Of a DNA stretch of 60,503 bases, positions 1-60,503 are shown one piece after another (position 1 is the stretch's first letter; the number at the start of each line of letters is the position of its first letter). A program made the translations under genes and the position numbers. Source of the stretch: a virus (Duplodnaviria; Caudoviricetes); the IMG/VR virus record IMGVR_UViG_3300012143_000004, positions 1 through 60,503 of that record; one strand, written 5' to 3'. The notes beneath the pieces were generated by a model that searched no databases, had not been told where the DNA came from, and saw only the letters and a list, made by a program, of their open reading frames with translations.

Positions 1-1
1 A

Positions 2-1834
2 CACATACAGCCCAGGGGCACTGATACCCTGGTTAACTGGGCTGATACCCTGGCCAATTTTGTGGAGGAAGAGATAACCACAGAACTGCATTTTAGAATA
101 AAGGGCACCCTTACAAAATTGAATGTGGTAAAAATTAGCGGTTTTGCATTTACCCTGGTAAGGTTGAATAAAACAGCCGCCCCGGATTACATTTATATTA
201 ACCACCTTTTTTTAGCCTGGGGCACCAGTGCCACCAGTATGCCCGGCACCAGTTTTGATTTTGATATAACGTTTGATGATGCAGCGTTTGTTTTAAACCC
301 TGATGATGAAATTTATGGGTTTTTTACAATACTGCACACAAAGAACGGGGCCCAGGCCAGCGACCCCGACCTAAAAGCCTTTCGCATACAGTATGACCAG
401 GAAAGTTTTTTTGATTTATCATGGTTGAGCCATAGCGCCCCAACACCGGCCAAAGTGTTTATGGTTAATGAAGCATTAAGCCGGATAACCGAAGCCATTA
501 CCGATGATAAAATAAAGGCCTACAGTGAATATTTTGGCAGGACTGATAGCCAGCCCTATAACCACGCCGGGGATGGATGCGGGGCCCTGGAAGTGATTAC
601 AAAGGGCCTTTTTATAAGACAGCAGGAAAACCGATTACCCCCAGCCCAAGCCGTACAAATGGCCATTAGCATGAAAGATATGTGGGAGGGTTTAGAACCC
701 CTGCACCATATTGGTTTTGGTTTTGAAGATGATACAAACAGGGCCCCAGGTTTTAAACGGTTACGGGTAGAGCACTGGAAATTTTTTTACCAGGATGAAA
801 TTTTAATGGAATGTAACCAGGTTAACCAGGTGGAACGGCAAACCATTGCAAACGAACATTATTCAAAGGCCAAAATAGGGTATGAAAAATGGGAGGCCGA
901 AGAGTTTAACGGCCTGGATGAATTATTAACCAATAGAGAATACAGAACCGATTTAGCCCAGGTTAAAAATGAACTATCCAAACTTTCAAAATTTATTGCC
1001 AGCGGTTATGCCTGGGAGGTTACCAGGCGAAAAAATACTGATTCCAAAGATTGGAGGTTAGATAATGATATTTTTTTAGTTTGCGTTACCCGGTTAATAA
1101 AAGAAATTTATACAGAAACATTAGAGGGCAATTTTGGAATTTCCGGGTTTGTTACCGAAACGGAACCAGTAAATATTACAGCCGGGGATTTAGTAGAAAT
1201 AACAGGTACCACCAGCAATAATGGCATTTACACCATTATAGAAGTGGGGGAAATTAGTGCGCCCATTGTTGGTTCAATTTGGGTGATAGCATTAAGCCCA
1301 GGCACCACCCCCGAAGCAGCCACCGCAACTTTTACACTAACAAACCCAGGGTTTATAGTTGAATTGGGGAACGTTTTAACCCCTGAAAACATTATAGACC
1401 CCGCCACCCTTTACAATTACAGATTAAGCCCGGCCAGGGTGGCCCTAAGATGGCTGGATAAAATTTTTGCCAGCTACAGGGTTTACAGCACCAGCCTGAA
1501 ATTGATTTTTGTGGATGGTACCGGCAATTATATTGCCAGGGGTGAAATGGAAAGTGATGTGTGCAAATGGGAGGTGGGTTTGATGGGTGAAAATGACTAT
1601 TTATATGGGGCCATAGTAGTTAACCAGGATAATGTTGCACCCATATTAAGGCCCGAAAGGGTAGATTTTGAATACCCCATGAGTATGGCAGATTTTAAAA
1701 AAATACTGGCTGCACCCTATGGTATAATTACCTGGTTTAACAGTTGCGAAAGTGGCCAGGGCTGGATTGATAAAGTAAGCTATAAGCCGGAAACAGGCCT
1801 GGCAAAATTTACATTAATTCCGAAGTATGAATAA
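2..1834 (+). CDS. Tail/baseplate structural protein, 5'-truncated (probably the continuation of the ORF starting at 59807)
   Basis: The frame is open from position 2 (HIQPRGTDTLVNW...), so the GTG at 62 is probably not the start. It follows the tape measure in circular order. Confidence 0.7.
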   Translation, partial: HIQPRGTDTLVNWADTLANFVEEEITTELHFRIKGTLTKLNVVKISGFAFTLVRLNKTAAPDYIYINHLFLAWGTSATSMPGTSFDFDITFDDAAFVLNPDDEIYGFFTILHTKNGAQASDPDLKAFRIQYDQESFFDLSWLSHSAPTPAKVFMVNEALSRITEAITDDKIKAYSEYFGRTDSQPYNHAGDGCGALEVITKGLFIRQQENRLPPAQAVQMAISMKDMWEGLEPLHHIGFGFEDDTNRAPGFKRLRVEHWKFFYQDEILMECNQVNQVERQTIANEHYSKAKIGYEKWEAEEFNGLDELLTNREYRTDLAQVKNELSKLSKFIASGYAWEVTRRKNTDSKDWRLDNDIFLVCVTRLIKEIYTETLEGNFGISGFVTETEPVNITAGDLVEITGTTSNNGIYTIIEVGEISAPIVGSIWVIALSPGTTPEAATATFTLTNPGFIVELGNVLTPENIIDPATLYNYRLSPARVALRWLDKIFASYRVYSTSLKLIFVDGTGNYIARGEMESDVCKWEVGLMGENDYLYGAIVVNQDNVAPILRPERVDFEYPMSMADFKKILAAPYGIITWFNSCESGQGWIDKVSYKPETGLAKFTLIPKYE

Positions 1835-2429
1835 AAAAATGTACCACCGGATTAACATAGAGCCCACGATAATTTTTAAATGTGGGGAATATGTAAGGGC
1901 CCACCCTATGGGGCAAAGGAGCCATTTTAATGGAACGTTTGAACAGCAAAGGGCTGGGTTAATTTGCCAGGTTGAAAACTACAGGTATTATAAAGGCAAT
2001 TACCCGATTTTATACCCTGGTAATGATGGGGGTATTGATTTTCCTTTAAATGGTTATGTGATAGACACAAAAGGAATGTTAAGCAAAGGATTTTACCAGC
2101 CTGGTTATAGGTGCAATATGTTAGCATGTCAAAAAGATTATAAAGCCGACACAATATTTTTTTGTGGGTACAACACAGATAAAAACATAGTTGAATTATT
2201 AGGCTGGGTACCTAAAAAAAAACTTTGCACCCCTGAAAATTTTAGGAAAAAAAACACAAAGTTGCCCATGATAAATGGCGATTTATTCACAGTGAAAGCA
2301 GATAGTTATTTTATAGAAACCAGGGAACTAAACACCCCTGAAAGTTTAATTGAACCAGTAAAAATAATAGAACCAGTGAAAATTATAAATAATGATTACC
2401 GCAACTACAGCCAGGGCAAACTTTTTTAA
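1827..2429 (+). CDS. Putative PD-(D/E)XK-type endonuclease
   Basis: Motif GNDGGIDF...VIDTKG resembles a PD-(D/E)XK core. Basic protein overlapping both neighbouring tail genes. Confidence 0.45.
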   Translation: MNKKMYHRINIEPTIIFKCGEYVRAHPMGQRSHFNGTFEQQRAGLICQVENYRYYKGNYPILYPGNDGGIDFPLNGYVIDTKGMLSKGFYQPGYRCNMLACQKDYKADTIFFCGYNTDKNIVELLGWVPKKKLCTPENFRKKNTKLPMINGDLFTVKADSYFIETRELNTPESLIEPVKIIEPVKIINNDYRNYSQGKLF

Positions 2430-5721: not shown

Positions 5722-7686
5722 ATGGCAACAGTATTTACCCCGGCAGAATTGAGGGCCCGTTTTATTGGACAAAAGAGGGGGTTAATTTATGACGAGGCCC
5801 TGGATATTTATAACAAATTACGCATACATGCTGATGGCGAAACACCGATTTTATTAATAAAAAAGGCCAGGCCAAATGAAAGCGAAGAGGTTAGAATATA
5901 CCGGAATGATATTTATGAGAGCGAAACACAAAACCCAGTTGAAAGGGTTTTGGGGGTATTGGAAAAGATACGCCGTTCACCTGATTGGATGATGAGGTTT
6001 GATGAAGAGATACCAGCCATTATTAATAAGGAGGAAACCCCCAAAAAATATTTGACTGAAAATTACCCGGTTTATGGGGATATTGAATATTGGATTTTTG
6101 AAGAGTTACTGAGGGCATTAAGCCTGGATGGTAACGCCATTATTTGTGTAATGCCTAAAACCTTTGCCCAGCCGGAGGGTAACGAATATTTAGAGCCCAT
6201 AGCAAAAATTTTTAACTGCAAAAATGTGGTGGATTTTGTACCCGATGATTATTGTATTTTAAAAAGTGATGAACTAAGCAGCCTATTAAACCCTGATGAA
6301 CAGCAGTTACGGTTAACCAATGGTAAAGCCACTATTTTTTTAACTGAGGGCAGGGAAATTTTTGTACCTGGCCAGGTTTATTATTTAATAACTAATAGCA
6401 GCTACCAAAAATGGGAGGAAACCCAGGATGGGAAATATAATTTAACCATGAATTTTCCCCACACATTAAAAGATTTACCAGCGTTTCAAATGCCTGGCAG
6501 GTTTGTTAAAAGGGTGGGGGATTATACACTGAAAAAAACCCCGTTGTTTCCAATGGTGCCACACCTTAACAAAGCAGCCCGAGAGTCAAACGATTTAGAT
6601 GCAGGGGTAATTATGCATTTGTATTTGGAAAAATGGCGAATAAATAACGTACCCTGCAGTACATGCAGCGGCACTGGTAAAACCCTGAATGATGGCATAG
6701 CAAACGAATGTAAAAGCTGCAAAGGCACTGGTTACGCCAATGGTAAAAGCCCGTTTAATGAAGTGGTGATAAGGCCAGCGGCCCTGGGTGAGCAGGCAAT
6801 ACCTACACCCCCCCTGGGTTATGTTGATAAGAACCCGGAAATATTAAAAATTCAGAATGAACGCATAGAGCAACACATTTACAGGGCCCTATGTAGTGTA
6901 AACATGGAGCATTTAAGTGATGCCCAACTAAACCAAAGTGGAACCGCAAAAGCGTATGATAGGGATGAAGTAAATAACACCATTTACACCTTTGCCACCA
7001 TGTTAACAGCCGTAACAAATGCAGTGGTAAAGCATATTATTGATTTGCGTTATGGGGGCATTATTGCCAGCCCGGAAGAAAGGGCCAAATTGTACCCAGT
7101 GGTACCAGTACCGGAAAAATATGATGTTATAAATTCCAGTTTTTTGATTAATGAATACCAGGTGGCAAAAACAGCCGGGTTAAACGGTATTATACTGGCT
7201 GAAATGCAAAAAGAAATTGGGCAAAAAAAGTTTTATGCAAACCCAAAAGTTTCTGAGTTTATACAATCGGTTATGGATTTAGACCCATTCCCCGATAAAA
7301 CCACAGAGGAAAAGGGAGCCATTGAAGCCCAAAAGCTGGCCACAAAAGAGGATGTTGTTTTATCGTTATACATAAGCGATTTTGTAAGGAGGGCCCAGGA
7401 AGAGGATGAAAATTTTAGCAGTAAAAGCGATATCGAAAAGCGGGAAAAGTTACTGGAATATGCAGCCGAAAAGGTGGAGGAACTGAGCGCAGCCGCCCAA
7501 ATACAGCAGGATTTGTTTTTTGAGGCCCAGGGAGCCCAACCAGGCCAGGAACAGCCACCAGGCAGCCAAACACCTGGGGAGCCGGCACCAGGGCAGGAAG
7601 GGGCCCCGGAAGCCAAAAACAAACCCACCAACGGCCAGCAGAAACCAAACACCCCAGCGAAAACACCAGCAAAGGCAGCAGCGTAA
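5722..7686 (+). CDS. Portal protein with CxxCxGxG zinc-finger insertion
   Basis: 654 aa, directly upstream of MuF. Contains QSGTAKAYDR motif and CSTCSGTG / CKSCKGTG; low-complexity C-terminal tail. Confidence 0.75.
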   Translation: MATVFTPAELRARFIGQKRGLIYDEALDIYNKLRIHADGETPILLIKKARPNESEEVRIYRNDIYESETQNPVERVLGVLEKIRRSPDWMMRFDEEIPAIINKEETPKKYLTENYPVYGDIEYWIFEELLRALSLDGNAIICVMPKTFAQPEGNEYLEPIAKIFNCKNVVDFVPDDYCILKSDELSSLLNPDEQQLRLTNGKATIFLTEGREIFVPGQVYYLITNSSYQKWEETQDGKYNLTMNFPHTLKDLPAFQMPGRFVKRVGDYTLKKTPLFPMVPHLNKAARESNDLDAGVIMHLYLEKWRINNVPCSTCSGTGKTLNDGIANECKSCKGTGYANGKSPFNEVVIRPAALGEQAIPTPPLGYVDKNPEILKIQNERIEQHIYRALCSVNMEHLSDAQLNQSGTAKAYDRDEVNNTIYTFATMLTAVTNAVVKHIIDLRYGGIIASPEERAKLYPVVPVPEKYDVINSSFLINEYQVAKTAGLNGIILAEMQKEIGQKKFYANPKVSEFIQSVMDLDPFPDKTTEEKGAIEAQKLATKEDVVLSLYISDFVRRAQEEDENFSSKSDIEKREKLLEYAAEKVEELSAAAQIQQDLFFEAQGAQPGQEQPPGSQTPGEPAPGQEGAPEAKNKPTNGQQKPNTPAKTPAKAAA

Positions 7687-7689
7687 AAA

Positions 7690-9387
7690 ATGAGCGACAT
7701 TAAAACGATAATGCAAACTATTGAACATGCAGTTAATAACCTGGATAATGCAGCCCTGAAAAAACAGGGGGTAATTTATAAGGAAGTAATGGCGAAGCTG
7801 AAAAAGTTAGAAACCAAAGGGGATAAGATTGCAAATAACATTACTAACCTGAGCCTGATAAATGAGATTACAATTTTGATCGAAAAATTGATGCTGGATA
7901 AAGGGTATAAAGACGAAATAAAAAAATTTACCCAGGCGTATAATGGGGTACAGGAACTAAGCAATAAATATTTTGCCAGTTTTGGAAAGGCCAGTGGTGA
8001 TGTAAAAAAGAAACTGGAAATTTTAAAAAATACCGCAGTTGAAAGCACCATAAACAATTTAGCGGAAACCGGGCTGCAAATAGGGGTTACCAACGGGTTA
8101 AGGAACATTTTAAAAACCAATATTACCGGGGGAGGTAGTTATGTCGATTTAACTAAGGAGCTGAAAGATTACATAACAGGCACCCCCGAACAAACCGGCA
8201 AAGTTTCGCAGTATGTAAGAACCTATGCAACTACCAGCATAAACCAGTTTAGTGCAGAATATAACAAAGCACTGGCCCAGGATTTAGGTTTGGAATGGTA
8301 CCAGTACGAGGGCAGTTTATTGGAAACCAGCCGGCCATTTTGTAAAATGGCAGTAGATAAACATTACATACACGTTAGCGAATTTCCAACCATTTTAAAG
8401 GGGGATTTTGGGCCCCTGGGAACTGTTAAGTTATACGACAAAACCGGATTACCGGAAGGGTTGATGGAGGGCACCGACCCGGATAACTTCCCGCGCAGGC
8501 GGGGAGGGTGGAATTGTGGCCACCAGCTGATAGCGGTTGATAGCCTACTGGTACCCACTGCAAAAAAATTGGCAGTATGGAATACCCCGGCATATAAGGA
8601 ATGGGAAAAAGAACAATTTAAAAAGGCCCAGCCGGCACCCCCAGCCCCACCACCGGTACCAGCCAAACCAGCTACAGTGGCAGAACTGGCAGTTAAGGCA
8701 ATACCACCGGTTAAAATGCCAGCCGGGGTGGTACGAACAGCTGCAGAGGAAAAACACCTGGAAACCATACAAACCAACAATAAAGAACATTTGGAAGCAA
8801 TGGAAAAAAAGGATATGGTTTTTTATCCCGAAATGGCAAAGTATTGGCCTGAAAATATTAAGATTGAATTTAACGAGGTAAAAGGTTCATTTTTCCAAAG
8901 CGGCCAGGGGTACATTGCGGATAAAATTGTTATCAGTGATAATGAAAGGGCAGAAAGGCCATATTTTAAAAAGAAAATTATGTTACATGAGGGAGCCCAC
9001 GCCATACACTACAACCAAAAAGTAATTACGCATACAGCAGTTGACCCGGTTTATGAAAAGTTTTTTAAGGGGTTAAAGAAGATCATTAAGGGCAAAGAGC
9101 TGGAAATTGAAAATGTTTTGCGGAAATGGCGCAACGATAATTTTGATGATAAAGACAAATTAGAGGAAGTAACCGTTATGACCGACACCCTGGGGGGATT
9201 AACAAAGGGGAAATACGGCTGGGGGCATGATGTAGCGTATTATAAGCGGCAAAATCATGGCCACATGGAAGTATTCGCCCACGCGGTTACTATTGCAAAG
9301 CTGGGTAACCAGCTGGGAAGCGAACATGAGGCCCTGAAAGCGTTAATAGACGAAATGAAAGTTTATGGTTTACAGTGGTTGAAATGA
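7690..9387 (+). CDS. MuF / SPP1 gp7-like minor head protein with C-terminal HExxH metallopeptidase-like domain
   Basis: MuF-like core (YEGSL..SRPFC ... GGWNCGH), Pro/Ala linker, then LHEGAHAIH and HMEVFAH. Confidence 0.75.
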   Translation: MSDIKTIMQTIEHAVNNLDNAALKKQGVIYKEVMAKLKKLETKGDKIANNITNLSLINEITILIEKLMLDKGYKDEIKKFTQAYNGVQELSNKYFASFGKASGDVKKKLEILKNTAVESTINNLAETGLQIGVTNGLRNILKTNITGGGSYVDLTKELKDYITGTPEQTGKVSQYVRTYATTSINQFSAEYNKALAQDLGLEWYQYEGSLLETSRPFCKMAVDKHYIHVSEFPTILKGDFGPLGTVKLYDKTGLPEGLMEGTDPDNFPRRRGGWNCGHQLIAVDSLLVPTAKKLAVWNTPAYKEWEKEQFKKAQPAPPAPPPVPAKPATVAELAVKAIPPVKMPAGVVRTAAEEKHLETIQTNNKEHLEAMEKKDMVFYPEMAKYWPENIKIEFNEVKGSFFQSGQGYIADKIVISDNERAERPYFKKKIMLHEGAHAIHYNQKVITHTAVDPVYEKFFKGLKKIIKGKELEIENVLRKWRNDNFDDKDKLEEVTVMTDTLGGLTKGKYGWGHDVAYYKRQNHGHMEVFAHAVTIAKLGNQLGSEHEALKALIDEMKVYGLQWLK

Positions 9388-9588
9388 GTAAGACATTGCC
9401 CCCAAACCCTGTTTTGGTTCATCCTTATAAACGATTTTTTTATTTTCCTTTAAAGCCTGGGGTACCAGTGTTTCCATAATAAAGGGGATGCCGAAAAATT
9501 CAGCCCCGGCAAACAATTCCTTATCCGTTTGCCCGGTTAAAGCCAAATATTTATCCAAATTTGCTTTGATTGTTTGCTTTGATGCCAT
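9370..9588 (-). CDS. Small protein convergent with MuF (candidate immunity protein)
   Basis: 72-aa ORF with ATG start. The + strand is locally TC-rich, as expected if the minus strand is coding in this TC-poor genome. Confidence 0.7.
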   Translation of the reverse strand: MASKQTIKANLDKYLALTGQTDKELFAGAEFFGIPFIMETLVPQALKENKKIVYKDEPKQGLGAMSYSFQPL

Positions 9589-9884: not shown

Positions 9885-9903
9885 AATAACCGGTTTTTTT
9901 TTT
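9877..9903 (+). terminator. Rho-independent terminator
   Basis: CCGGTTA-aaa-TAACCGG followed by a T tract. Confidence 0.75.
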
Positions 9904-9911
9904 GAAATAAA

Positions 9912-9945
9912 TTTGGAGTGTATGCGAAAGTGTACACTATCTTTG
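9912..9945 (+). promoter_or_regulatory. Promoter/operator copy 2
   Basis: TTTG ga GTGTA tgcgaaagtg TACAC TATCTTTG. Confidence 0.85.
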
Positions 9946-9975
9946 TATAACAAAACCAATAAAAACACCACCGTT

Positions 9976-10593
9976 ATGATTACTGAAATTAAAAATGAAG
10001 CCGGAAACGTAATTGCAGTTGTTACCCCAGGTGCAGCCTGGCTGATAGCTGAATTTAAAAAATTAGGGTATGAGTTAAAAATTTATACTAACCTAAGAGG
10101 CCAATTGTGTGCAAACTGCACTAAGCAAAGTGCAAAAATGAAATGGCCAAAAAATGTATTTTCCTTTTTTTATGGCAGCAATTTAAACAGGGCAAAAAGC
10201 CTGGTGGAAACCCTGGCTAAATGGAATGCATGGGAGCAAAGAAAACAGGATAATAAAGCAGAGAAAAAACAGGCCAGGGAAAATTTTACAAACCCTTACC
10301 AGGTGGGCCAGGTTTTCTATGATTCCTGGGGTTATGACCAAACCAATGTTGATTTTTATCAAATTGTGGAGGTAAAACCTAAAAGTGTGGTATTACGCGA
10401 AATAGCCAGTTTTTATTTGGATGGCAGCCGGGTAAAACCAATGCCAGGAACCTTTACAGGGGAGGCCAAAATTAAGCCCATACAGCTGAGGGTTTATGAT
10501 GGCAAAGCAAACCATTACATAAACGGGGAAAGGGGCAGTATTAGCCTATATGATGCAGGTGATAAGGGTTTATATTATTCTACTTACCATTAA
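9976..10593 (+). CDS. Hypothetical early protein (SWGYDQTNVDFYQ motif)
   Basis: ATG after AAAAACACCACCGTT leader; motif recalled from phage hypothetical proteins. Confidence 0.8.
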   Translation: MITEIKNEAGNVIAVVTPGAAWLIAEFKKLGYELKIYTNLRGQLCANCTKQSAKMKWPKNVFSFFYGSNLNRAKSLVETLAKWNAWEQRKQDNKAEKKQARENFTNPYQVGQVFYDSWGYDQTNVDFYQIVEVKPKSVVLREIASFYLDGSRVKPMPGTFTGEAKIKPIQLRVYDGKANHYINGERGSISLYDAGDKGLYYSTYH

Positions 10594-10639
10594 CAAACCA
10601 GGCCTGGGGGTAACAACCCAGGCCTTAAATAAAAAACAC

Positions 10640-10828
10640 ATGAAAAAATATAATGTTTACTACACAATTGACAAAGCAAAACGCCAACACTATTTTTTAA
10701 TAGATGCCACCAGTGAAACCGGGGCCCGGTTAGAGGCACAAAAAAGAATTAAAAAACTGCAGGATGCAGGCAAACCCGGCCCATATACAATTATTAAAGT
10801 AGAACTTTCACAGGGGTTTTACATTTAA
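10640..10828 (+). CDS. Hypothetical early protein
   Basis: ATG after an A-rich leader. Confidence 0.7.
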   Translation: MKKYNVYYTIDKAKRQHYFLIDATSETGARLEAQKRIKKLQDAGKPGPYTIIKVELSQGFYI

Positions 10829-10836
10829 CCACCAGG

Positions 10837-10861
10837 CCTGGCAAATAAGCCAGGTTTTTTT
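10837..10861 (+). terminator. Rho-independent terminator (near-identical to 11695-11720)
   Basis: CCTGGC-aaataa-GCCAGG followed by T7. Confidence 0.8.
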
Positions 10862-10901
10862 ATGCCCCCTGGTACCAGGTAAAAATATTTTTAAAATAAA
10901 A

Positions 10902-10933
10902 TTTGTGTATGTTATTTCTTACACATACCTTTG
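10902..10933 (+). promoter_or_regulatory. Promoter/operator copy 3
   Basis: TTT GTGTA tgttatttct TACAC a TACCTTTG. Confidence 0.85.
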
Positions 10934-10953
10934 ATGTATCAAAATAAAAAAAC

Positions 10954-11115
10954 ATGACAAACGAAACACTAACAGCGACAATGGTAAGGATGGTAATTTT
11001 AGATGCTATTTCTAAAGGCCACATAAACGCCACACAAATGATGGAATACATGAAAACCCAGGCTTTTTTTGATGCAGTAGCATTATACAAACAGTTATAC
11101 CACGAAACTTTTTAA
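10954..11115 (+). CDS. Hypothetical 53-aa early protein (absent from ORF track)
   Basis: MTNETLTATMVRMVILDAISKGH...HETF, directly after promoter copy 3. Confidence 0.7.
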   Translation: MTNETLTATMVRMVILDAISKGHINATQMMEYMKTQAFFDAVALYKQLYHETF

Positions 11116-11157
11116 CCACCAGGCCTGGGGATAACCCAGGCCACAAATTTTTAAAAC

Positions 11158-11682
11158 ATGACCAAAGAAATGAGCAACGAACAAAGAGCAGCCTGGAAAG
11201 CAGAAATGGAAAAACGCAATGGGATTAAAACCACCCACCTGGTAATATTTGAGGGCAGGCAATTTGAAATAAGGGGGTACCATGAGTTAAGATATTTGCA
11301 TAATTCAAAATTTACATACCAGGTATGGACAAAGCAGGATGAAAATAATTCGCATGGCCTAACCATTACACCTGGTAAAAAACTGGGGCAGATTTTCCGG
11401 GAATTAATAACCAGGGTGGAAAAATCAGAGGCAAACGGAAAAAAATACAGGGCCTTTGAAAATGCATACACCGCCCTGGATAATGCAGGAAAAATCAGTG
11501 ATAGCCGTTTTGCGTATGCCAGGTTTGTGATAGGCTACAATTTAGGCGACTATTATAATTTGTATTGGAGGTTTGATGATAGCCCCACCGGGGTTTTGTG
11601 TGTGGGGGCCTGCAGTGCAGTGGAATGGGAGGAAATAAGCCAGCTGGTAGGGCAGAGCCACAACTATTTAGAGCCCCGTTAA
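11158..11682 (+). CDS. Hypothetical early protein
   Basis: 174-aa ORF inside the cassette. Confidence 0.8.
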   Translation: MTKEMSNEQRAAWKAEMEKRNGIKTTHLVIFEGRQFEIRGYHELRYLHNSKFTYQVWTKQDENNSHGLTITPGKKLGQIFRELITRVEKSEANGKKYRAFENAYTALDNAGKISDSRFAYARFVIGYNLGDYYNLYWRFDDSPTGVLCVGACSAVEWEEISQLVGQSHNYLEPR

Positions 11683-13176: not shown

Positions 13177-13362
13177 TTATGCCCCTGGTACAATTTTACT
13201 TTTATTCCATTCCCTTATTAACCTATAGTAAACCTGTTCACGTTTTAATATTAGGTTCTCTTCGCATTCCAGCCGGGTTTGTTCAGTTTTAATAATGTGC
13301 TCAATATCCACCGGTAAATTTTTTAATGGAAAGGTTTTTTTATGTGTTTCGTTTTTTGCCAT
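13177..13362 (-). CDS. Putative ribbon-helix-helix DNA-binding protein
   Basis: Beta-strand-like KTFPLKNLP followed by two amphipathic helices. Divergent from the head operon; local + strand TC richness supports minus-strand coding. Confidence 0.55.
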   Translation of the reverse strand: MAKNETHKKTFPLKNLPVDIEHIIKTEQTRLECEENLILKREQVYYRLIREWNKSKIVPGA

Positions 13363-34928: not shown

Positions 34929-35249
34929 ATGACCTTACGCCAATTACTAAGCGGGAAATTTTGCCCGTTTACCGGAATTGAAGCAAAAATTTTAAATACT
35001 GTAAGTAATTCACGTTTAGCCGATAAGCCCCCCGGTTATTTTTTTTGCCTGGAAGAGCCGGAAAGTGTGGAAAATAAAACCGACCCTGCAGAGCCCCCAC
35101 AGCCGTACATTGCAAACCCCAAAAAACCCACCAGCCGGGGGGATAGGAGCGCCTATTTTAAAGAATGGTACCAGGCCCATAAACAGCGAAAACATGATTT
35201 ATATGTAAAAAGAAAAATAAAAAACAGCCAAAATGGAAACGTCAATTGA
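34929..35249 (+). CDS. Hypothetical protein, paralog of 34251-34583
   Basis: Shared N-terminal domain and basic C-terminus. Confidence 0.7.
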   Translation: MTLRQLLSGKFCPFTGIEAKILNTVSNSRLADKPPGYFFCLEEPESVENKTDPAEPPQPYIANPKKPTSRGDRSAYFKEWYQAHKQRKHDLYVKRKIKNSQNGNVN

Positions 35250-36213
35250 ATGGTGCAGTACAACGGGGCCAAACGGGGAAACTTACCCAGGTTATACATT
35301 TTCGCCCTGGTGGGGATGCATGAAAGTAAGCCCAGCATGTAAACATTGTTATGCGGAAACATTCGCGGAAAGGTTTAGCCCTGGATTGTGGGGCCCTGCA
35401 GCCACCACCCAGCGCAAAACAGCCAGCGCCGGGTATTGGAAACAGCCATTGTACTGGAATTTAAAAGCCAGCAGATTAGAAACCCGGTTAAAGGTTTTTT
35501 GTGCCAGCATGGCTGATGTATTCGAGCAACATAAACAGCTACCAGTTTTAAGGGAAAGGTTATGGAATTTAATAACCATTACCCCAAACCTGGATTGGCT
35601 ATTATTGACAAAGAGGCCTGAAAATGTACTGGAAATGATACCCGAAACATGGCGGGGAGCATTACCGGCTAATGTATGGGTGGGTACCAGTGTGGAAAGC
35701 CAGGGTTATGCAAATGAGCGAATACCACACCTTTTAAAAGTGCCAGCCAGGGTACTTTTTTTAAGTTGCGAACCCCTGCAGGGGCACGTTGATTTAACCA
35801 GGCTGATTAGGGAGGAAAGGGGGATTGCGTATGTAGATGATTGTTTAACCGGGTTTAAAGCACATGGCCAGGGGGGCTGGTATGGGCCAAAAATTAACTG
35901 GGTAATTGCTGGGGGGGAAAGTGGCAGGGATGCCAGCCCGAGCCACCCCCAATGGTTTAGAAGTTTACGCGACCAATGCAAAACTGCAGGGGTGCCATTT
36001 TTTTTTAAACAATGGGGTGAATACCTGGTTTATACCCCCGATAAAGAAAATAAAGAAAACCGCACAGCCCAGTTAACCCTAAGCAAACCCGAAAATTATT
36101 TTGATGGCCGTATATGGTTTGAAAACGAACCGGAAGCCCATGCAGTAAGAATGGGTAAACATGGAGCCGGTAATTTATTGGACGGAAAAAAATATTTAGA
36201 AATGCCAGTTTAG
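35233..36213 (+). CDS. Phage Gp37/Gp68 (DUF5131) family, radical-SAM-like protein
   Basis: TSIEW, PWWGCMKVSPACKHCYAE, VFCASMADVF, LLTKRP, FLSCEPL, WVIAGGESG and FFFKQWG motifs. Confidence 0.9.
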   Translation: METSIEWCSTTGPNGETYPGYTFSPWWGCMKVSPACKHCYAETFAERFSPGLWGPAATTQRKTASAGYWKQPLYWNLKASRLETRLKVFCASMADVFEQHKQLPVLRERLWNLITITPNLDWLLLTKRPENVLEMIPETWRGALPANVWVGTSVESQGYANERIPHLLKVPARVLFLSCEPLQGHVDLTRLIREERGIAYVDDCLTGFKAHGQGGWYGPKINWVIAGGESGRDASPSHPQWFRSLRDQCKTAGVPFFFKQWGEYLVYTPDKENKENRTAQLTLSKPENYFDGRIWFENEPEAHAVRMGKHGAGNLLDGKKYLEMPV

Positions 36214-36377: not shown

Positions 36378-37445
36378 ATGGCCAGTTATATAAAATTAGA
36401 CCGTAAAATATTAAAGTGGGAATGGTACAAAGACAGTAAAGTAAAAAGCCTGTTTGCCCACTTACTTTTAATTGCCAGTTTTGAAGATTGCCAATGGCAG
36501 AGCCATGACATAAAGCGGGGCCAGGTTTTAACCGGCAGAAAAGAACTAGCAGAGGAAACCGGATTAACTGAAAAAGAAATAAGAACCGCCCTAAAAAAAT
36601 TAATGTCAACAGGGGAAATTTTAAAGGAAGTTTTTAATAAATTTTCCATAATAACTGTTTGTAATTACGAAAAATACCAGGCAACGTTTAACGGTATTGA
36701 TAGGGCCAGCAAAAATGATGATTTAAATGGTTCAGATTTAGGAACTTATAAAGGTGAAGATATAGGGCAGGGGCCAGCAAAGGGCCAGCAAATGGGCCAG
36801 CAAATGGGCCAGCAAAAAGACGAAAAAAGGGCCAGCAAAAATGATACTGCAAATGATTTATTTTCAGGTAGTTACGAAATCGAAAATTTAGATAGGGGCC
36901 AGCTGGATTTTGAAAAAGGGCCAGCGAAAGGGCCAGCGAATGGGCCACTATTAAAGAATATAAGAAGTAAAGAAGAATACAGTAAAACCAATTCTAATAA
37001 ATTAGAATTGGTAAAAGCGCCGGCAGAGCCAGCGCCACCACCCACAGTTTTAAAAACTGAAAACCCAAATACAACCACCCCCCCAGCCCCCCCGCCGGCC
37101 CGGCCACCAAAACCCCCGCCAAAAAATACCCTGGAAGAAAAACAAACCCAATGTTTGGAACGGGAAAAAATTTTTAAAGCCAGCCTGAAACCGTTTATTG
37201 AATTATACACAATCGAAACCCTAAAGGAATTTTTTGATTATTGGAGCGAACCCGATATTAAAAGCCAAACCCAAATGAGATTTGAAAAGGAAAAAACATG
37301 GGATTTAAAACGCAGGTTGAGAAGATGGACAAAAGACGATAAAAAAAGCAATAATTTACCCAACAATAAAAACACCACCGAAAATGAAACGTACCTACGC
37401 GAAAGGCAGAAACTCATTGAACGCAGCAGAGCAAACAGCGATTGA
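36378..37445 (+). CDS. Phage replication initiator (lambda O-like organisation)
   Basis: YIKLDRKILKWEWY N-terminus, wHTH, internal DNA repeats, C-terminal FFDYWSE..MRFE.EKTW; upstream of DnaB. Confidence 0.8.
   Translation: MASYIKLDRKILKWEWYKDSKVKSLFAHLLLIASFEDCQWQSHDIKRGQVLTGRKELAEETGLTEKEIRTALKKLMSTGEILKEVFNKFSIITVCNYEKYQATFNGIDRASKNDDLNGSDLGTYKGEDIGQGPAKGQQMGQQMGQQKDEKRASKNDTANDLFSGSYEIENLDRGQLDFEKGPAKGPANGPLLKNIRSKEEYSKTNSNKLELVKAPAEPAPPPTVLKTENPNTTTPPAPPPARPPKPPPKNTLEEKQTQCLEREKIFKASLKPFIELYTIETLKEFFDYWSEPDIKSQTQMRFEKEKTWDLKRRLRRWTKDDKKSNNLPNNKNTTENETYLRERQKLIERSRANSD
36703..36948 (+). repeat. Iteron-like repeats (GGGCCAGC x9 plus GGGCCAC), probable replication origin
   Basis: Copies at 36703, 36771, 36782, 36794, 36806, 36829, 36896, 36918 and 36930; partial copy at 36942. 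Confidence 0.75.
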
Positions 37446-38940
37446 TTTAACCACCCTGATTTATGGCAAAGTACCACCCCAGGCCCGCGACCTGGAAGAG
37501 AGCACCCTGGGGGCCATAATGCTGCAGAAAGACGCATTTTTTACAGCAGTGGAATATTTAAAGCCCCAGGCTTTTTATGTGGATAGCCACCAGCGAATAT
37601 TTGAAGCCATGCAGAACATGGCGAACCAGGGCCAGCCCATTGATATTTTAACCGTTACTGAGGAAATGAGAAAACGTGATGAACTGGAAGTGATTGGAGG
37701 CCCGTATTTCATAACCAAACTAACCAACAGCGTAGTAAGTGCAGCCCATTTGGATGCCCATTGTAAAATCATAGTTCAAAAATTTATACAGAGGGAGTTA
37801 ATTAGGCTGGGAGTGGAAATATTAAACCAGGGTTATGAAGATAGTACCGATGCATTTGAGTTACTGGAAAAAGCAGAAACGGAACTTTTTAAAATTGGAG
37901 CCGGTAACAGCAAAAAGCCCATTATAAGCCTGGAAAATTTAGCATACCCGGCCCTGCAGAAAATCGAAAATTTGATGCAGAACAAAAACACCGTTACTGG
38001 TGTACCCACCGGGTTTTTGGTTTTGGATAACCCTACAGGTGGCTGGCAGCCCACTGATTTAATTATTTTGGCGGCCAGGCCCAGTGTAGGAAAAACAGCC
38101 TTTGCATTGAACCTGGCCAGGAATGCAGCCACCCACCCGGTAAAGCCCACCCCAGTGGGAATGTTTAGCCTGGAAATGAGCAACGAGCAATTAATGCAGC
38201 GTTTGATATCCACCACCAGCCAGGTGCCATTACAGAACATAAGCCGGGGCAGGCTGGAAGAGTGGCAACATGCTAAGGTTTACCAGGCCGTAAAGGGCCT
38301 GGCAGAATTACCCATTTACCTGGATGATAGCGCAGCCCTGAATATTTTTGAACTGAGGGCAAAGGCCAGGCGAATGGTAAGCGTTTACAAAGTGGGTTTG
38401 ATAATTGTGGATTACCTGCAGCTGATGGCAGGAACAGTGGAGGGGAAAGGGAACAGGGAGCAGGTGATTAGTGAAATAACCAGGGGTTTAAAAGGCATTG
38501 CAAAGGATTTGGAGGTGCCCATTATAGCCCTGAGCCAATTAAACCGGGAACCGGAAAAAAGGCAGGGAGGGGTACCAGTATTGGCAGATTTACGGGAAAG
38601 CGGGGCAATAGAACAGGATGCAGATTTGGTAGCTTTTTTATACCGGCCCGATTACCAAACGGAAGCCGAGAAAATCGACCCTACATGGCGTAACGATGCA
38701 TTTATGAAAATTGCTAAACACCGCAACGGGGCCCTGGAAACTTTGCCCTTTAAAACAGATTTAAAAATTCAAACCTGGTTTGATGAAACAGCATGGCGGG
38801 ATTATACAGGCGAAGGTTTTACCATTTACCAGCCGGCCCAGTTACCACCCATTAAGCCGGTTAACGGTTTACCCAGGATAACAAAGCCGGCCCCGGATAA
38901 CTGGTTTGAGAGCCGGAATAAAGAGGATGATTTGATTTAA
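37384..38940 (+). CDS. dnaB: Replicative DNA helicase
   Basis: GKVPPQA, AARPSVGKT, FSLEMS, IVDYLQL, LSQLNR, DLRESGAIEQDAD and IAKHRNG motifs. Confidence 0.97.
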   Translation: MKRTYAKGRNSLNAAEQTAIDLTTLIYGKVPPQARDLEESTLGAIMLQKDAFFTAVEYLKPQAFYVDSHQRIFEAMQNMANQGQPIDILTVTEEMRKRDELEVIGGPYFITKLTNSVVSAAHLDAHCKIIVQKFIQRELIRLGVEILNQGYEDSTDAFELLEKAETELFKIGAGNSKKPIISLENLAYPALQKIENLMQNKNTVTGVPTGFLVLDNPTGGWQPTDLIILAARPSVGKTAFALNLARNAATHPVKPTPVGMFSLEMSNEQLMQRLISTTSQVPLQNISRGRLEEWQHAKVYQAVKGLAELPIYLDDSAALNIFELRAKARRMVSVYKVGLIIVDYLQLMAGTVEGKGNREQVISEITRGLKGIAKDLEVPIIALSQLNREPEKRQGGVPVLADLRESGAIEQDADLVAFLYRPDYQTEAEKIDPTWRNDAFMKIAKHRNGALETLPFKTDLKIQTWFDETAWRDYTGEGFTIYQPAQLPPIKPVNGLPRITKPAPDNWFESRNKEDDLI

Positions 38941-45624: not shown

Positions 45625-45702
45625 CCCAGCCCCAGCACCAGCAACACCCCCCCCAGTTGAAAAATTGGGGGTTTTTTTTTGCCCCATACCTTTACACCCA
45701 CT

Positions 45703-46272
45703 ATGGTTAAACTATCCACCTATTTCATTAACGGGGAAAACCCCCGACAGATAAAAGATGAAAAATTCAGGCAATTAATGGGCAGCCTGCACAATTTTCC
45801 CCAAATGATGGAACTTAGGCCCATTGTAGTGGATGAAAATAATATGGTACTGGGGGGAAATATGAGGTACAGGGCCCTGGTGGAAATGGGAGTGGTGGAA
45901 GTACCCGACAGCTGGATAAAACGAACCAGTGAACTAACAGCCGACCAAAAAAGGGAGTTTATTATAAAAGATAACGCCACATTTGGGGCCTGGGATTGGG
46001 ATATATTGGCAGATACCTGGGAGGCAGAGCAGCTGGAAGCCTGGGGCCTGGATATACCCGATTTAACCGGCAAAAAGAAAGTAGAATTTAATGCCAGCAC
46101 CACCCCGGATTTTACCATTAACCTGGTGTACAATAGTGAGGAAAATTATAACCTGGTAAAAAACAAACTGGCCAAAATAGCCGCCACCCCGGAAGAGGCA
46201 ATATGGAAACTATTAACCCACTGGGATAACTTAAAACTGATTGATAACGGTAAAGCCATTTTAAAACAATAA
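45703..46272 (+). CDS. ParB/sulfiredoxin-like N-terminal domain protein
   Basis: NPRQI..SL..FP..LRPIVVDENNMVLGGNMRYRAL..IIKDN..G.WD. Confidence 0.85.
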   Translation: MVKLSTYFINGENPRQIKDEKFRQLMGSLHNFPQMMELRPIVVDENNMVLGGNMRYRALVEMGVVEVPDSWIKRTSELTADQKREFIIKDNATFGAWDWDILADTWEAEQLEAWGLDIPDLTGKKKVEFNASTTPDFTINLVYNSEENYNLVKNKLAKIAATPEEAIWKLLTHWDNLKLIDNGKAILKQ

Positions 46273-48983: not shown

Positions 48984-49232
48984 ATGAAAAAACCAACATT
49001 TAGAAACTGGCACCGGCCAGCCTATTGGTACAGAGCAAAGCCACAGGATTTAAATTTTGTTATGCCCCGTAAAGATGGCAATTGCCTGGAAATTAAAGCC
49101 ACCAGCAAAGATGGCCAGGAAATAATTTTTAACCTGGATGAAGAGTTAACCAAATTGTTTTTATTACACCTGGATAAAAGTTATTTTGGTAAGAAAGTAA
49201 CCAGGGAAATGTACGGATTACCTAAAGTTTAA
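48984..49232 (+). CDS. Hypothetical early protein
   Basis: AAAAACACCACC leader. Confidence 0.7.
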   Translation: MKKPTFRNWHRPAYWYRAKPQDLNFVMPRKDGNCLEIKATSKDGQEIIFNLDEELTKLFLLHLDKSYFGKKVTREMYGLPKV

Positions 49233-49242
49233 AAACACCATT

Positions 49243-49482
49243 ATGAAAACACTGATTTTTGAATTTCCCAAAATTTATGGCCTGGAATACCTGGAAAAAA
49301 AAGCCTACCAGGAAAAGGTTGAAAAAATTATACGCATAGAGGCCCCCAAATGTGGCCTGGAATGGAAAGCAGCATTTATTAATATTACCTGCAGCCAGGA
49401 TGAAGGGAACGCCATACAGGCCACCCTATTTATGTTTTACCGGGTAAAGCCCTGGCATGATTTAATAGGAGCCGAAAAATAA
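49243..49482 (+). CDS. Hypothetical early protein
   Basis: AAAAACACCATT leader. Confidence 0.7.
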   Translation: MKTLIFEFPKIYGLEYLEKKAYQEKVEKIIRIEAPKCGLEWKAAFINITCSQDEGNAIQATLFMFYRVKPWHDLIGAEK

Positions 49483-49493
49483 AATAAAATTTA

Positions 49494-49532
49494 TTTGGTG
49501 TAATGAATTGTTTACACTTAAATTTGTGTAAC
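49494..49532 (+). promoter_or_regulatory. Promoter/operator copy 11
   Basis: TTTG GTGTA atgaattgtt TACAC t TAAATTTG TGTAAC. Confidence 0.85.
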
Positions 49533-49545
49533 AAAAGCAAAAAAC

Positions 49546-49809
49546 ATGATACAGGAAATTAAAAAAGGGGATAGCGTTAGGTTTTCAGAACACCCTTTTA
49601 ATTTAGAAATTAAAGGAGTAAGTGAAAAAGCCTTTTTAGTTGTTATTACTAATAACAGCTGGTTACACGAAAGTGCTAAAAGCGTTTGGGTGCCAAAAAG
49701 TTTATGTACTGTTTATGAAGTAAAAGCAGCTGGCACCGGGTTTACCCAATTTGGCAGCCTGTTTATGGTTAAAGATTTACCCACCTGGTTTGCAAAAAAA
49801 ACTTTTTAA
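49546..49809 (+). CDS. Hypothetical early protein (SEKAFLV..WVPKS motif)
   Basis: Follows promoter copy 11. Confidence 0.7.
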   Translation: MIQEIKKGDSVRFSEHPFNLEIKGVSEKAFLVVITNNSWLHESAKSVWVPKSLCTVYEVKAAGTGFTQFGSLFMVKDLPTWFAKKTF

Positions 49810-49853
49810 TAAAACACCGGGGGCCTACCAGCCCCCATTTAAAACACCCCGTT

Positions 49854-50144
49854 ATGGAACAAAAAACCGACCGCGAAAAAATTGCAGACATTTACAATGA
49901 GTTTCCATTTGAAAAAGTGCTGGCCTATATGGTATTAACAGGCTGGAAATGGAGGGATAAAACCCCCGACCTGGAAGAGATTAAAACAACGGCCTACAGT
50001 TGCCTGGATAGGGCATTAACTGAGGGAAAGCCGGAGGAAAGTTATAGTGGTGGCACTGGTGGGTTTTATGCCTATAGATTTAAATGGAGTGGTAAACTAT
50101 TTTTTAAATTGGCCTTTGAACCCTGGCACAAAAGCAGTTATTAA
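49854..50144 (+). CDS. Hypothetical early protein
   Basis: AAAACACCCCGTT leader. Confidence 0.7.
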   Translation: MEQKTDREKIADIYNEFPFEKVLAYMVLTGWKWRDKTPDLEEIKTTAYSCLDRALTEGKPEESYSGGTGGFYAYRFKWSGKLFFKLAFEPWHKSSY

Positions 50145-50527: not shown

Positions 50528-51316
50528 ATGAATTTACACGAATACACTTTGATTATTATTAACAGCAGCGCCGGTAAAGATAGCCTGGCCAGTATGTGGG
50601 AAATTAACAGGATGGCCCAGGAACAAAATTTTCCTGCAGATAAAATTTTTGTGAGCCACCAATGTTTAGGTAAAATGGAATGGCCAGGCACCAGGGAACT
50701 GGCAGAAAGGCAGGCCAGGAAATTTGGATGGGGTTTTGAAGTTTCTAAATACAGGGATGCAGCCGGCCAGGAAATTAGTTTACTGGAATATGCAGAGAAA
50801 AGGGGCAAATGGCCAGCTAAAAAACAAAGGTGGTGTACCAGTGAATTTAAAAGGGGTGCAGGGGCCAGGGTAGTAACCAAATTAACCAAAGGCCTGGGGG
50901 ATTGTAAAGTATTGCACGTTTTCGGTTTTAGGGCCCAGGAAAGTGCAGATAGGGCCAAAAAGCAAACCCTGGTTTTAAATACCAGGATAAGCAGCAAAAA
51001 AAGAAAGGTTTATGATTATTTGCCGATACACAATTGGAGCAGTTTTGAAGTTTGGGCCACCATTAAAGGGGCAGGCCTGGAATACCACCCGGCCTATGAT
51101 TTAGGTATGCCCCGGCTAAGTTGCGTATTTTGCATTTTTAGCCCATTTCAGGCCCTGGTAATTGCCGGCAAACATAACCCCCAGCTGTTAGATGAATATG
51201 TAAAGGTGGAGGCCAAAATTGGCCATACGTTTACAGCTGCACACAGCCTGGCAGAAGTAAAAGCAGTGGTGGAAGCCGGGGCCATTGTTGAAAGTGTGGA
51301 AGATTGGGTTATGTAA
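50528..51316 (+). CDS. PAPS reductase / DndC-like PP-loop family protein
   Basis: SSAGKDS, RWCTSEFK, GFRAQES..R, PI..W and HPAY..G..RLSCVFC motifs. Confidence 0.85.
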   Translation: MNLHEYTLIIINSSAGKDSLASMWEINRMAQEQNFPADKIFVSHQCLGKMEWPGTRELAERQARKFGWGFEVSKYRDAAGQEISLLEYAEKRGKWPAKKQRWCTSEFKRGAGARVVTKLTKGLGDCKVLHVFGFRAQESADRAKKQTLVLNTRISSKKRKVYDYLPIHNWSSFEVWATIKGAGLEYHPAYDLGMPRLSCVFCIFSPFQALVIAGKHNPQLLDEYVKVEAKIGHTFTAAHSLAEVKAVVEAGAIVESVEDWVM

Positions 51317-59779: not shown

Positions 59780-59806
59780 TTTATTGCCCCCAAAAAAATA
59801 CCAGGT

Positions 59807-60503
59807 ATGGAATGGGAATTTAAATTGATTGACCGGGATAATGTAGAAACCGACATTGACGAGCCGATAGGTTTTGATGCCTGCACCATAGTGATTAACC
59901 GGGATAATGATAAACATGGAATAATTTTTGACTACCAGGGAAACGATTTTAGTTTTTATGGCAAAGCCCTGGAAATGATACAAACGGAATATGAAACCTA
60001 TGGGGTGGAGGGGGTAATGTCAATGGTTATTTTACAGGCATGTGATGGCGGCCCGGCTGAATTGTACCGGGGCCAGCTGGTATTTACCCAATACAAATTT
60101 TTTTGCGGGGATGAGTGTTATGCAAAAATTCCCCTGGAAATGACCGGGGATATAATGACCTTTTCTAATAGGTTTGACCAAAAGGTGAATTTACAAACCC
60201 TGCAGGCCTTTGATGAAATAACCCCCCTGGTACCCTACGATTTTTTGCCCCTAACAATAAGTTTACCCAGCAAAGGCATTTTATTAAAAGATAAAAGCCT
60301 GAATGAAACACTAATAAAGGAGGAAATTTTAGGGGCAACGGTATTCAGTACCACCCCCGATGAGTACGGGGAAATTGGCATGATAGAAATGGCAAATAGT
60401 AAAATAATTGCCAGTGAGGTGGGAGGGTTTGGGATGAAAACCAGCCCGGAATACCGAATGATAAAAGATGGCCCTGGATTTAATAACCCACCATTTGGGG
60501 CCA
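59807..60503 (+). CDS. Tail protein, 3'-truncated (absent from ORF track)
   Basis: MEWEFKLIDRDNVETDIDEPIGFD... is open for 232 codons to the window end. Confidence 0.75.
   Translation, partial: MEWEFKLIDRDNVETDIDEPIGFDACTIVINRDNDKHGIIFDYQGNDFSFYGKALEMIQTEYETYGVEGVMSMVILQACDGGPAELYRGQLVFTQYKFFCGDECYAKIPLEMTGDIMTFSNRFDQKVNLQTLQAFDEITPLVPYDFLPLTISLPSKGILLKDKSLNETLIKEEILGATVFSTTPDEYGEIGMIEMANSKIIASEVGGFGMKTSPEYRMIKDGPGFNNPPFGA

Follow-up and report, generated by a model that had tools for sequence, protein, structure and literature searches.

Deep depletion of TC from the sense strand of a tailed phage, and a milder TC/GA bias in part of the Chitinophagales

What could remove one dinucleotide from one strand of an entire phage genome? 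The question is raised by IMGVR_UViG_3300012143_000004, a tailed phage recorded as a single contig of 60,503 bases; the window analyzed here (positions 1–60503) is that whole record. An initial annotation, made from the letters of the contig, had proposed a strong sequence-specific pressure on TC and GA. We find such a pressure, strong on TC and weaker on GA, and codon phases, synonymous shuffles and non-coding DNA place it at the level of nucleotides and not of codons. The explanation that we favor, tentatively, is that two layers are superposed: a compositional signature of the host lineage, and a phage-specific purge of TC from the + strand by some hazard in the infected cell.

Loss of TC from the + strand

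Over the whole contig the + strand holds 385 TC (dinucleotide ratio, rho, 0.14) vs 3393 GA (rho 0.72). CT (0.52) and CG (0.58) are also low on this strand, and CC (1.95), TT (1.67) and GG (1.51) are high. TC is equally scarce along the entire contig, with a rho of 0.06–0.24 in all 31 sub-windows of at most 2 kb, and its ratio is 0.51 or less in 93 of the 93 + strand genes. Non-coding DNA (4447 nt) shares the bias, with 28 TC vs 155 GA and a TC rho of about 0.11–0.12. A recount of nt 1–600 returned the same 2 TC and 37 GA on the + strand that had been counted by hand, and an exhaustive count found GATC at the two places where it had been noticed and nowhere else.

1..60503, + strand: whole contig, TC purged from the + (sense) strand, GA depleted less; CC, TT and GG in excess
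7878..7881: GATC site, first of two (2 in the contig vs 21 expected from a second-order Markov model)
9081..9084: GATC site, second of two

The gene set comes from crude calls of open reading frames (ORFs); after refinement the call has 93 ORFs on the + strand and keeps two on the minus strand, 95 in total. Codon counts and codon phases were taken from 74 + strand ORFs of the crude call, the synonymous shuffle from the refined call. TC is low in every codon phase as well as in intergenic DNA (rho 0.22 at codon positions 1-2, 0.09 at 2-3 and 0.13 at 3-1). GA is depleted where coding leaves it free, with a rho of 0.38 at 2-3 and 0.45–0.52 at 3-1 (0.45 at junctions without Met or Trp codons), and this free-site depletion is three to four times smaller than that of TC. 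In 300 rounds of a shuffle that preserves every protein and its codon usage, 683±18 TC are expected at codon junctions and 95 are present (z −32); for GA the figures are 1330±20 and 725. Junction CC stands at 2.08–2.17. The initial annotation had taken an amino-acid-controlled TC ratio near 1 as the sign of ordinary codon usage; the value obtained is 0.14, and the proposal stands. Codon usage or translation is ruled out as the cause, given that spacers show the bias as strongly as codon junctions do and that it survives the synonymous shuffle.

The same pressure is visible in codon choice, as first described. Ser is mostly AGY (601 of 734 Ser codons), and TTC, ATC, GTC and CTC are scarce (58, 27, 4 and 0). 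GA is avoided where it is optional, with 288 AGG vs 104 AGA and 382 GGG vs 199 GGA. Coding DNA holds 343 TC, and the same proteins would allow as few as 54 and as many as 7680. The 54 unavoidable sites are those where Phe is followed by Pro, His or Gln, dipeptides that are themselves thinned (54 vs 88 expected; Tyr-Pro/His/Gln, 91 vs 80). In four-fold codon boxes ahead of C the third base is T in a fraction of 0.00 of 1045 codons and C in 0.61.

The route of this loss can be followed in the portal gene. In 12 portal columns with Ser in at least 7 of 11 relatives, the window has Ser in 11, so the recoding has been mostly synonymous. Conserved codons that are ATC in relatives appear in the window equally often as ATA and as ATT, 22 of each when five relatives are pooled, and TCN has become AGY. 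TC has been lost by T to C at codon junctions, by C to T, A or G inside codons, and by TCN to AGY; C>T at T3|C1 and T>C at T2C3 would each alter the protein. No single mutation direction clears TC from all three codon phases, and the replacement pattern is that of selection against the TC step itself: varied replacements, without one direction of change, argue for selection rather than one-way mutation. Pure TC>TT deamination of the APOBEC or DddA kind, among the candidates first listed, is not supported by these substitutions (T3|C1 gives C3|C1, ATC gives ATA as often as ATT, and TCN gives AGY). The strand bias to be expected of deamination during single-stranded exposure is nonetheless present in the non-coding counts of TC and GA.

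The TC that survive are nearly confined to positions after two A/T bases. Relative to base composition, TTTC stands at 0.76, ATTC at 0.49, TATC at 0.24 and AATC at 0.11, and a G or C in either of the two positions ahead of TC holds the ratio to 0.06 or less, except in GTTC (0.17). The same rule holds at codon junctions against the shuffle, where TC with G or C upstream is found 5 times vs 356 expected (0.014), TC after two A/T bases 47 vs 245 (0.19), and the unavoidable TTT|C 43 vs 83. GAT|C and CAT|C are absent (0 vs 80 and 0 vs 34), and AAT|C and TAT|C are rare (8 vs 83 and 10 vs 74). A weaker trend of the same form is seen on the antisense strand, where GA followed by G/C stands at 0.35–0.46 and GA followed by two A/T bases at 0.67. 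DarT ADP-ribosylates thymidine in single-stranded DNA (ssDNA) at TNTC. A TNTC-type DarT, another of the early candidates, is not supported by this context: the TC that remain have T at −2 1.99 times as often as expected, and TTTC and ATTC are the least depleted words.

Longer words are avoided as well. Against a second-order Markov model, CTAG occurs 5 times vs 45, CAAG 1 vs 147 and CTTG 0 vs 39, with CTGG at 456 vs 289 and TCGA at expectation (17 vs 17.4). The near-absence of CAAG/CTTG and the loss of CTAG look like a separate footprint, restriction-like or like that of very-short-patch (VSP) repair. Work by Merkl and by Bhagwat and McClelland, both of 1992, is said to have described such a repair footprint in E. 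coli, with CTAG and CAAG/CTTG low and CCWGG high. Two side observations concern neighboring words. CTN ahead of G is CTG in 251 of 251 cases, and GGAC/GTCC is strongly avoided on both strands (GGAC 27 vs 87 by the Markov model, GTCC 0), with GGA making up 0.01 of Gly codons ahead of C vs 0.26 ahead of A.

The genome is transcribed almost wholly in one direction, so far as its 93 + strand ORFs and two minus-strand ORFs indicate. The asymmetry of the purge, already noticed in the initial annotation, is the strongest clue; it is robust because of non-coding DNA and codon junctions, and not because of the two minus-strand genes. In non-coding DNA the difference between 28 TC and 155 GA has a binomial p of 2e-21, and in the G/C-upstream context 3 sense sites remain vs 58 antisense sites; at junctions the ratios in that context are 0.014 sense vs 0.35–0.46 antisense.

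9370..9588, minus strand: 72-aa ORF, convergent with the MuF-like gene; 8 TC on the + strand, all forced by Asp/Glu
13177..13362, minus strand: 61-aa ORF; 11 TC on the + strand, nine forced by Asp/Glu

TC does reappear on the + strand over these two ORFs (8 and 11), as had been remarked at the outset. Read as a sign that the bias flips with the coding strand, the observation does not hold by itself, since 8 of 8 and 9 of 11 of these TC are complements of Asp and Glu codons. On its own sense strand ORF 13177–13362 has 1 TC vs 5.9–9.4 expected from local composition (P 0.016–0.1 when set against a baseline ratio of 0.65). ORF 9370–9588 is the one stretch left unpurged on its own sense strand (8 TC vs 10.3 expected, including three TCN Ser codons); it may have arrived recently, or may be no genuine gene or one that is not expressed. 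A flip of this kind could be seen in relatives that have genes in both orientations, and those available have too few minus-strand genes to show one.

Phage relatives and the probable host lineage

The portal protein was used as the query for relatives and for the host clade.

5722..7686, + strand: portal gene

A portal relative lies in Segetibacter aerophilus, and matches occur in 17 of 401 genomes of Segetibacter's order, which we take to be Chitinophagales. An origin among cyanophages was rejected: the best cultured match to the large terminase, TerL, is Pseudanabaena phage Pan5 (42.8% identity over 49% of the query), Pan5 has a TC of 0.95, and the portal points to Chitinophagales. Only one distant locus was found as a relative of the helicase, and a first metagenome scan found nothing.

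Among phage pieces the closest, L023 (4.8 kb, portal 78–81% identical), has a TC of 0.49, and L018, L022 and L019 lie at 0.66–0.73. A sister clade (portal 65% identical) has normal TC, a CG rho of 0.11–0.19 and a TA rho of 0.43–0.46. In the sister-clade phages L004–L006, L016, L020 and L024–L027 (terminase or portal 57–65% identical), CA/TG stands at 1.6–1.7. One phage family includes members with differing extreme dinucleotide biases, and some sampled host genomes have a CG of 0.52–0.69.

Chromosomal samples from 97 genomes of the order, mostly 20 kb each, serve as proxies for the phage's host. Sense TC ranges from 0.29 to 1.39 across them and is below 0.6 in 11 of the 97; the window, at 0.14–0.17, lies beneath the whole range. 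In the depleted genomes (G318, G178, G394, G234, G058 and six others) the symmetrised TC rho is 0.49–0.7, and the bias is strand-symmetric. Intergenic TC and GA are about equal (0.50/0.57 in G318 and 0.64/0.70 in G178), and in both of these genomes GTC and CTC are the rarest NTC and genes on either DNA strand are alike, with G394 similar. The initial annotation had regarded the same bias in host genomes as a mark of ordinary codon usage. The bias is indeed present in the likely hosts, but there too it belongs to the DNA and not to codon choice, being seen intergenically and being weakest in ribosomal-protein and EF-Tu loci.

Several properties tie the phage to these depleted genomes. Its symmetrised TC is 0.52, vs 0.49–0.53 in the most depleted of them, and the TC of prophage loci follows that of their own chromosomes (Spearman 0.81, n=15). 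CTAG, GATC and CAAG/CTTG are rare in the phage and in the depleted host genomes alike. Across host genomes TC depletion goes with an excess of GpC (Spearman −0.73) and with loss of GATC (0.56). In G318 the words CAAG (302 vs 533) and CTTG (257 vs 443) are mildly low.

The host bias is relaxed in some loci that are presumed to be highly expressed, namely those around ribosomal proteins L14 and L2 and EF-Tu. TC values at codon positions 2-3 and 3-1 are 0.66/0.75 there vs 0.25/0.34 in the background of G318, 0.57/0.71 vs 0.32/0.47 in G178 and 0.75/0.79 vs 0.40/0.44 in G058, a clear relaxation in three of five host genomes. TTC makes up 52% of Phe codons in the ribosomal/EF-Tu loci of G318, 19% in its background and 8% in the phage. 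In the host, then, translational selection overcomes the force, which is the behavior expected of a mutation bias or of weak selection; in the phage it dominates. That presumably highly transcribed host genes are rich in TC suggests that the strong agent leaves the host's own nucleic acid alone during normal growth.

A full-text literature search found no description of TC/GA under-representation in Chitinophagales, nor of a TC/GA rho of 0.5 in bacteria, and the words TpC, GpA and Bacteroidetes are absent from a survey of bacterial dinucleotides (PMC11282364).

A repair bias from TC to CC had been among the candidates first put forward, and the excess of CC fits it. A word pattern of the Vsr type, in which CTWG words are rare and CCWG(G) words frequent, is also matched by the counts above (CTAG, CTTG and CAAG low, CTGG high). 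Canonical Vsr is rejected as the cause of the TC bias, however, because presence of the gene is unrelated to the TC value: a Vsr gene occurs in 67 of 401 genomes, and median TC is 0.88 in 17 genomes with Vsr vs 0.89 in 80 without it (p 0.52).

Gene content and occurrence of the phage

The contig encodes a portal, a MuF-like protein, a tape-measure protein, a large terminase, RecT, an SbcC-like ATPase, a DnaD-like initiator and a DnaB-like helicase, and has no tRNA gene in its 60,503 nt. Family-library scans covered 32 of the 95 ORFs, the remaining 63 being mostly small. No DNA polymerase was found among the 32 scanned ORFs, and the phage therefore probably relies on the host replisome. Besides the replication module, three genes bear on possible modification of the phage's own DNA.

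36378..38940, + strand: replication module, DnaD-like initiator/loader (phrog_2514, E 9e-22) and DnaB-like helicase (phrog_19, E 4e-111)
35233..36213, + strand: DUF5131 (Gp37/Gp68) protein, considered as a possible DNA-modifying enzyme (PF07505, E 6e-74; below the cut-off for TIGR04471)
45679..46272, + strand: ParB-like nuclease-domain protein adjoining the terminase (phrog_620, E 9e-19; phrog_498, E 5e-20, N-terminal part only)
50528..51316, + strand: PAPS-reductase-like (PP-loop) protein, weakly DndC-like (PF01507, E 7e-14; TIGR03183, E 6e-8, far below the cut-off)

The DUF5131 family is listed with the radical-SAM superfamily, the subject of a resource paper. None of the DUF5131, PAPS-reductase-like and ParB-like genes was found in the available DNA of the close relatives L004–L008, and the DUF5131 and PAPS-reductase-like genes were found in that of no relative at all. 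The ParB-like gene occurs in L003 at 100% (the same phage) and in L009 and L010 at 53%, both of the latter without TC depletion. A search of the window's proteins with NCBIfam profiles gave only matches below the cut-offs.

Two further features lie elsewhere in the contig. An MBL-fold protein at 33071–33796 shows a weak likeness to the anti-Pycsar protein Apyc1 (18.5 bits vs a cut-off of 50) and to a cyclic-nucleotide-degrading phosphodiesterase (38 bits vs 400), and judged by these likenesses is possibly a counter-defence gene. Four small + strand ORFs within 9900–12600, starting at 9913, 11776, 12225 and 12554, have near-alike translated leaders, which points to a repeated upstream element ahead of each cassette.

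A search of the phage collection found no near-identical record. Public runs that carry 60% or more of the words sampled from positions 30001–40000 number 24; they bear 24 study codes and come from freshwater sediment, sediment and groundwater, and none of the 24 is listed as an RNA dataset. Contigs from four independent public runs align to 30001–50000 with few differences, and for the three runs that supply most pieces, 121 of 129 aligned pieces match at 99% or better. The listed differences come to six letters, all close to the ends of two low-depth contigs. Across the four runs the phage is thus almost clonal, too uniform to yield a substitution spectrum between close strains. An artefact of sequencing or assembly is ruled out by the intact ORFs and by the agreement of these four runs over 30001–50000. 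In all four a contig joins position 34034 back to 30001, the start of the aligned stretch, with an identical 17 letters between; the join may reflect a repeated junction sequence or an alternative gene order in the population.

Accounting for a one-strand purge

In the explanation that we favor, the first layer would be a DNA dialect that the phage shares with a subset of Chitinophagales, in which TC and GA are low on both strands (rho about 0.5–0.7), together with the GpC excess and the rarity of GATC, CTAG and CAAG/CTTG. This layer would account for the level of GA in the phage. Its force in bacteria would be weak, and its presence in intergenic DNA and ordinary genes, together with its being overridden in ribosomal/EF-Tu regions, points to context-dependent mutation or repair bias, or to weak selection. 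The second layer would be specific to the phage and to the + strand, a further purge of TC of four- to five-fold or more, maintained by selection site by site and near-complete where G or C lies within two bases upstream. It would override the TTC (Phe) and ATC (Ile) codons that are common in the ribosomal/EF-Tu loci of the proxies, and would have shifted Ser to AGY and thinned the Phe-Pro/His/Gln dipeptides.

As for mechanism, each TC on the + strand, above all each with G or C (S) upstream, would bring a small chance, much the same from site to site, that the genome is damaged in the infected cell, by an event such as cleavage, deamination or another covalent change of the single-stranded + strand, and genomes with fewer TC sites would survive more often. 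The strand could be exposed as the non-template strand in transcription, or as a displaced strand or lagging template in replication; with TC equally rare along the contig, a replicative cause would need replication in one direction. We infer that the target is DNA, that it is attacked in the single-stranded state and that the agent comes from the host. Attack on + strand DNA is favored over attack on messenger RNA because essential genes, tiny accessory ORFs and spacers are all purged to the same degree, and because the context trend extends, more weakly, to the other strand.

A number of points weigh against this explanation. No agent was found, and the host is represented by proxies whose range (at least 0.29) does not include the phage's sense value of 0.14. 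A very high local mutation rate would act as selection against TC too, and a mutational hazard and a direct attack are inseparable here. The like order of 3' contexts on the two strands is partly due to a separate depletion of CT/AG. The two minus-strand ORFs are split (1 TC vs 8 TC) on whether the asymmetry follows the transcribed or the replicated strand, and an agent acting on RNA would explain the sense-strand purge equally well if transcripts are polycistronic. Finally, two of the five host genomes are not clearly less depleted in their ribosomal/EF-Tu loci: G234 is relaxed at the codon junction only (0.33/0.75 vs 0.28/0.48), and in G394, from a 2-kb sample, there is no difference from the background.

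The strongest competitor, which we nevertheless consider unlikely, moves the attack to RNA: a host ribonuclease or RNA-modifying enzyme would act on UC in single-stranded transcripts, either a HEPN enzyme such as Cas13b or an ADP-ribosyltransferase like CmdT with another dinucleotide preference. Capnocytophaga and Prevotella belong to the Bacteroidota. Precedents for dinucleotide-specific action on RNA are given by PMC10196884, where the reporters used for Cas13b were UC for the Capnocytophaga enzyme and GA for that of Prevotella, and by PMC11618068, in which CmdT modifies GA in single-stranded RNA. The likeness to these enzymes lies in a two-letter specificity, a single-stranded target and an agent active in infected cells. 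A purge on the sense strand of a nearly one-direction genome, spacers included, is what such an enzyme would leave, the minus-strand ORF 13177–13362 is purged on its own sense strand, and the unpurged ribosomal/EF-Tu genes of the host fit an agent triggered by infection. Yet the phage's purge also weakly touches the other strand, which action on messages leaves unexplained, and a second cause would be needed for the GA depletion of the sense strand with its same context trend. The purge is, moreover, equally deep in tiny accessory ORFs and in spacers, which is less expected if the harm comes from loss of a single message, and ORF 9370–9588 is unpurged.

Less probable again is a neutral signature with no attack at all, in which host enzymes replicate the phage and its DNA drifts to the mutation and repair equilibrium of the host, the asymmetry arising from one-directional replication or transcription-linked mutation. 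Host chromosomes and prophages do carry the bias and track each other, it is weakest in the ribosomal/EF-Tu loci as expected of a mutational bias, no phage DNA polymerase is seen among the scanned ORFs, and the related phage clade with a CG of 0.11–0.19 has a different bias in the style of CpG decay. The best neutral proxy, however, is intergenic DNA of the host, and there TC stands at 0.50–0.70 on both strands, vs 0.11 on the + strand of the phage. Neutral drift also meets the lack of any one mutation direction that would clear TC in all three codon phases, the equal frequency of ATC to ATA and ATC to ATT, and the recoding of Ser and thinning of dipeptides, which require selection. In the same vein, the phage resembles a Karlin-type genome signature, or amelioration toward one, in that the TC/GA bias and the rare 4-mers are found throughout the host clade and its prophages and in that its symmetrised value lies in the host range; unlike the bias of the phage, such a signature is strand-symmetric, as it is in host intergenic DNA.

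We think it very improbable that the phage marks TC/GA in its own DNA through the DUF5131, PAPS-reductase-like and ParB-like proteins and holds the marked step out of the strand that serves as template for its genes. DndB and DndC of DNA phosphorothioation are ParB-like and PAPS-reductase-like, respectively, and the PAPS-reductase-like protein of the window has a weak match to DndC; both its gene and that of the DUF5131 protein are, as noted, missing from the available DNA of relatives. All three matches are generic or below curated cut-offs, however, the scan of 32 of the 95 ORFs turned up neither a DpdA/TGT-like protein nor one of the 5-hmdU pathway, and the ParB-like gene is shared with L009 and L010, which are not depleted. 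The bias also occurs in host chromosomes and in prophages without these genes in their available DNA, and the comparison is based on one depleted phage.

Least credible is a sum of many ordinary restriction sites containing TC or GA: such sites do contribute, as had been suggested (GATC 2 vs 21, with CTAG and CAAG/CTTG also purged beyond the dinucleotide effect and low in host genomes), but palindromes cannot yield a one-strand bias, TC is lost in every G/C-upstream context (5 of 356) and not in a few words, TCGA is at expectation, and a tenfold loss of a dinucleotide on one strand is beyond their reach.

Three further causes were dropped. Rho acts on YC dimers in RNA that is C-rich and G-poor, and a composition that avoids Rho would need CC to be depleted with TC, whereas CC has a rho of 1.95. 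Ultraviolet damage at dipyrimidines is at odds with the enrichment of TT and CC, and the runs come from sediment and groundwater. For a TTC protospacer-adjacent motif (PAM) of the type I-C style, TTC is the least depleted NTC, and PAM loss would hit both strands.

How does this purge compare with known systems? Phage genomes avoid restriction sites and other short motifs, including GATC, palindromes and PAMs (PMC12174588, PMC4246573). The purge resembles such avoidance in that TC is rarer than composition and coding allow, rarer than in the host-clade proxies, and removed synonymously; it differs in that the word has two letters with a loose G/C context upstream, that one strand only is affected and that no cognate enzyme is known. 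Phage T7 reportedly escapes the type III enzyme EcoP15I by a strand-biased orientation of its sites. Escape on one strand is common to both cases, but with 385 TC remaining here an all-or-none orientation rule is impossible.

ZAP suppresses CpG in viruses. For papillomaviruses, TC depletion is attributed to APOBEC3 in PMC4999249, large DNA viruses of invertebrates are described as depleted in CpT/ApG in PMC4219779, and the bacterial toxin DddA is reported to prefer TC in PMC10442228. As in suppression by APOBEC3 or ZAP, one dinucleotide is depleted across the whole genome in a manner linked to the host group, and TC is the step of both APOBEC3 and DddA; unlike it, the loss goes much deeper (0.14, and 0.014 in context), it concerns a bacterial host, and the replacements are not C>T alone. 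A literature search found no anti-phage ssDNA deaminases among the papers listed, and a full-text search, with supplementary files outside its scope, found no report of a TC-purged phage.

Phage genomes record the action of their hosts on foreign nucleic acid, and the record here is unusually sharp: one dinucleotide has been cleared from one strand almost as far as the encoded proteins permit, and the clearance follows a context rule that can be read and that gives a direct design for assays to find the agent. A part of one bacterial order is, in addition, shown to have a marked under-representation of TC/GA. Some Chitinophagales may carry an enzyme of defense or housekeeping, of a kind undescribed in bacteria, that acts on single-stranded nucleic acid at TC with a nearby upstream G or C and presses infecting phages hard enough to have recoded a whole 60-kb genome, Ser codons and some dipeptides with it, a bacterial counterpart of the pressures of APOBEC on TC or ZAP on CpG in animal viruses; we regard this joint proposal as somewhat doubtful, less secure than the two-layer explanation itself. 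Were it true, the sequence rule of the enzyme could be read directly from the phage, and an agent with two- to four-letter single-strand specificity would be of interest both for the biology of phages and hosts and as a tool. If the cause is instead a mutation spectrum, the phage would be a strong example of how mutation that depends on context can shape entire genomes and even their proteins.

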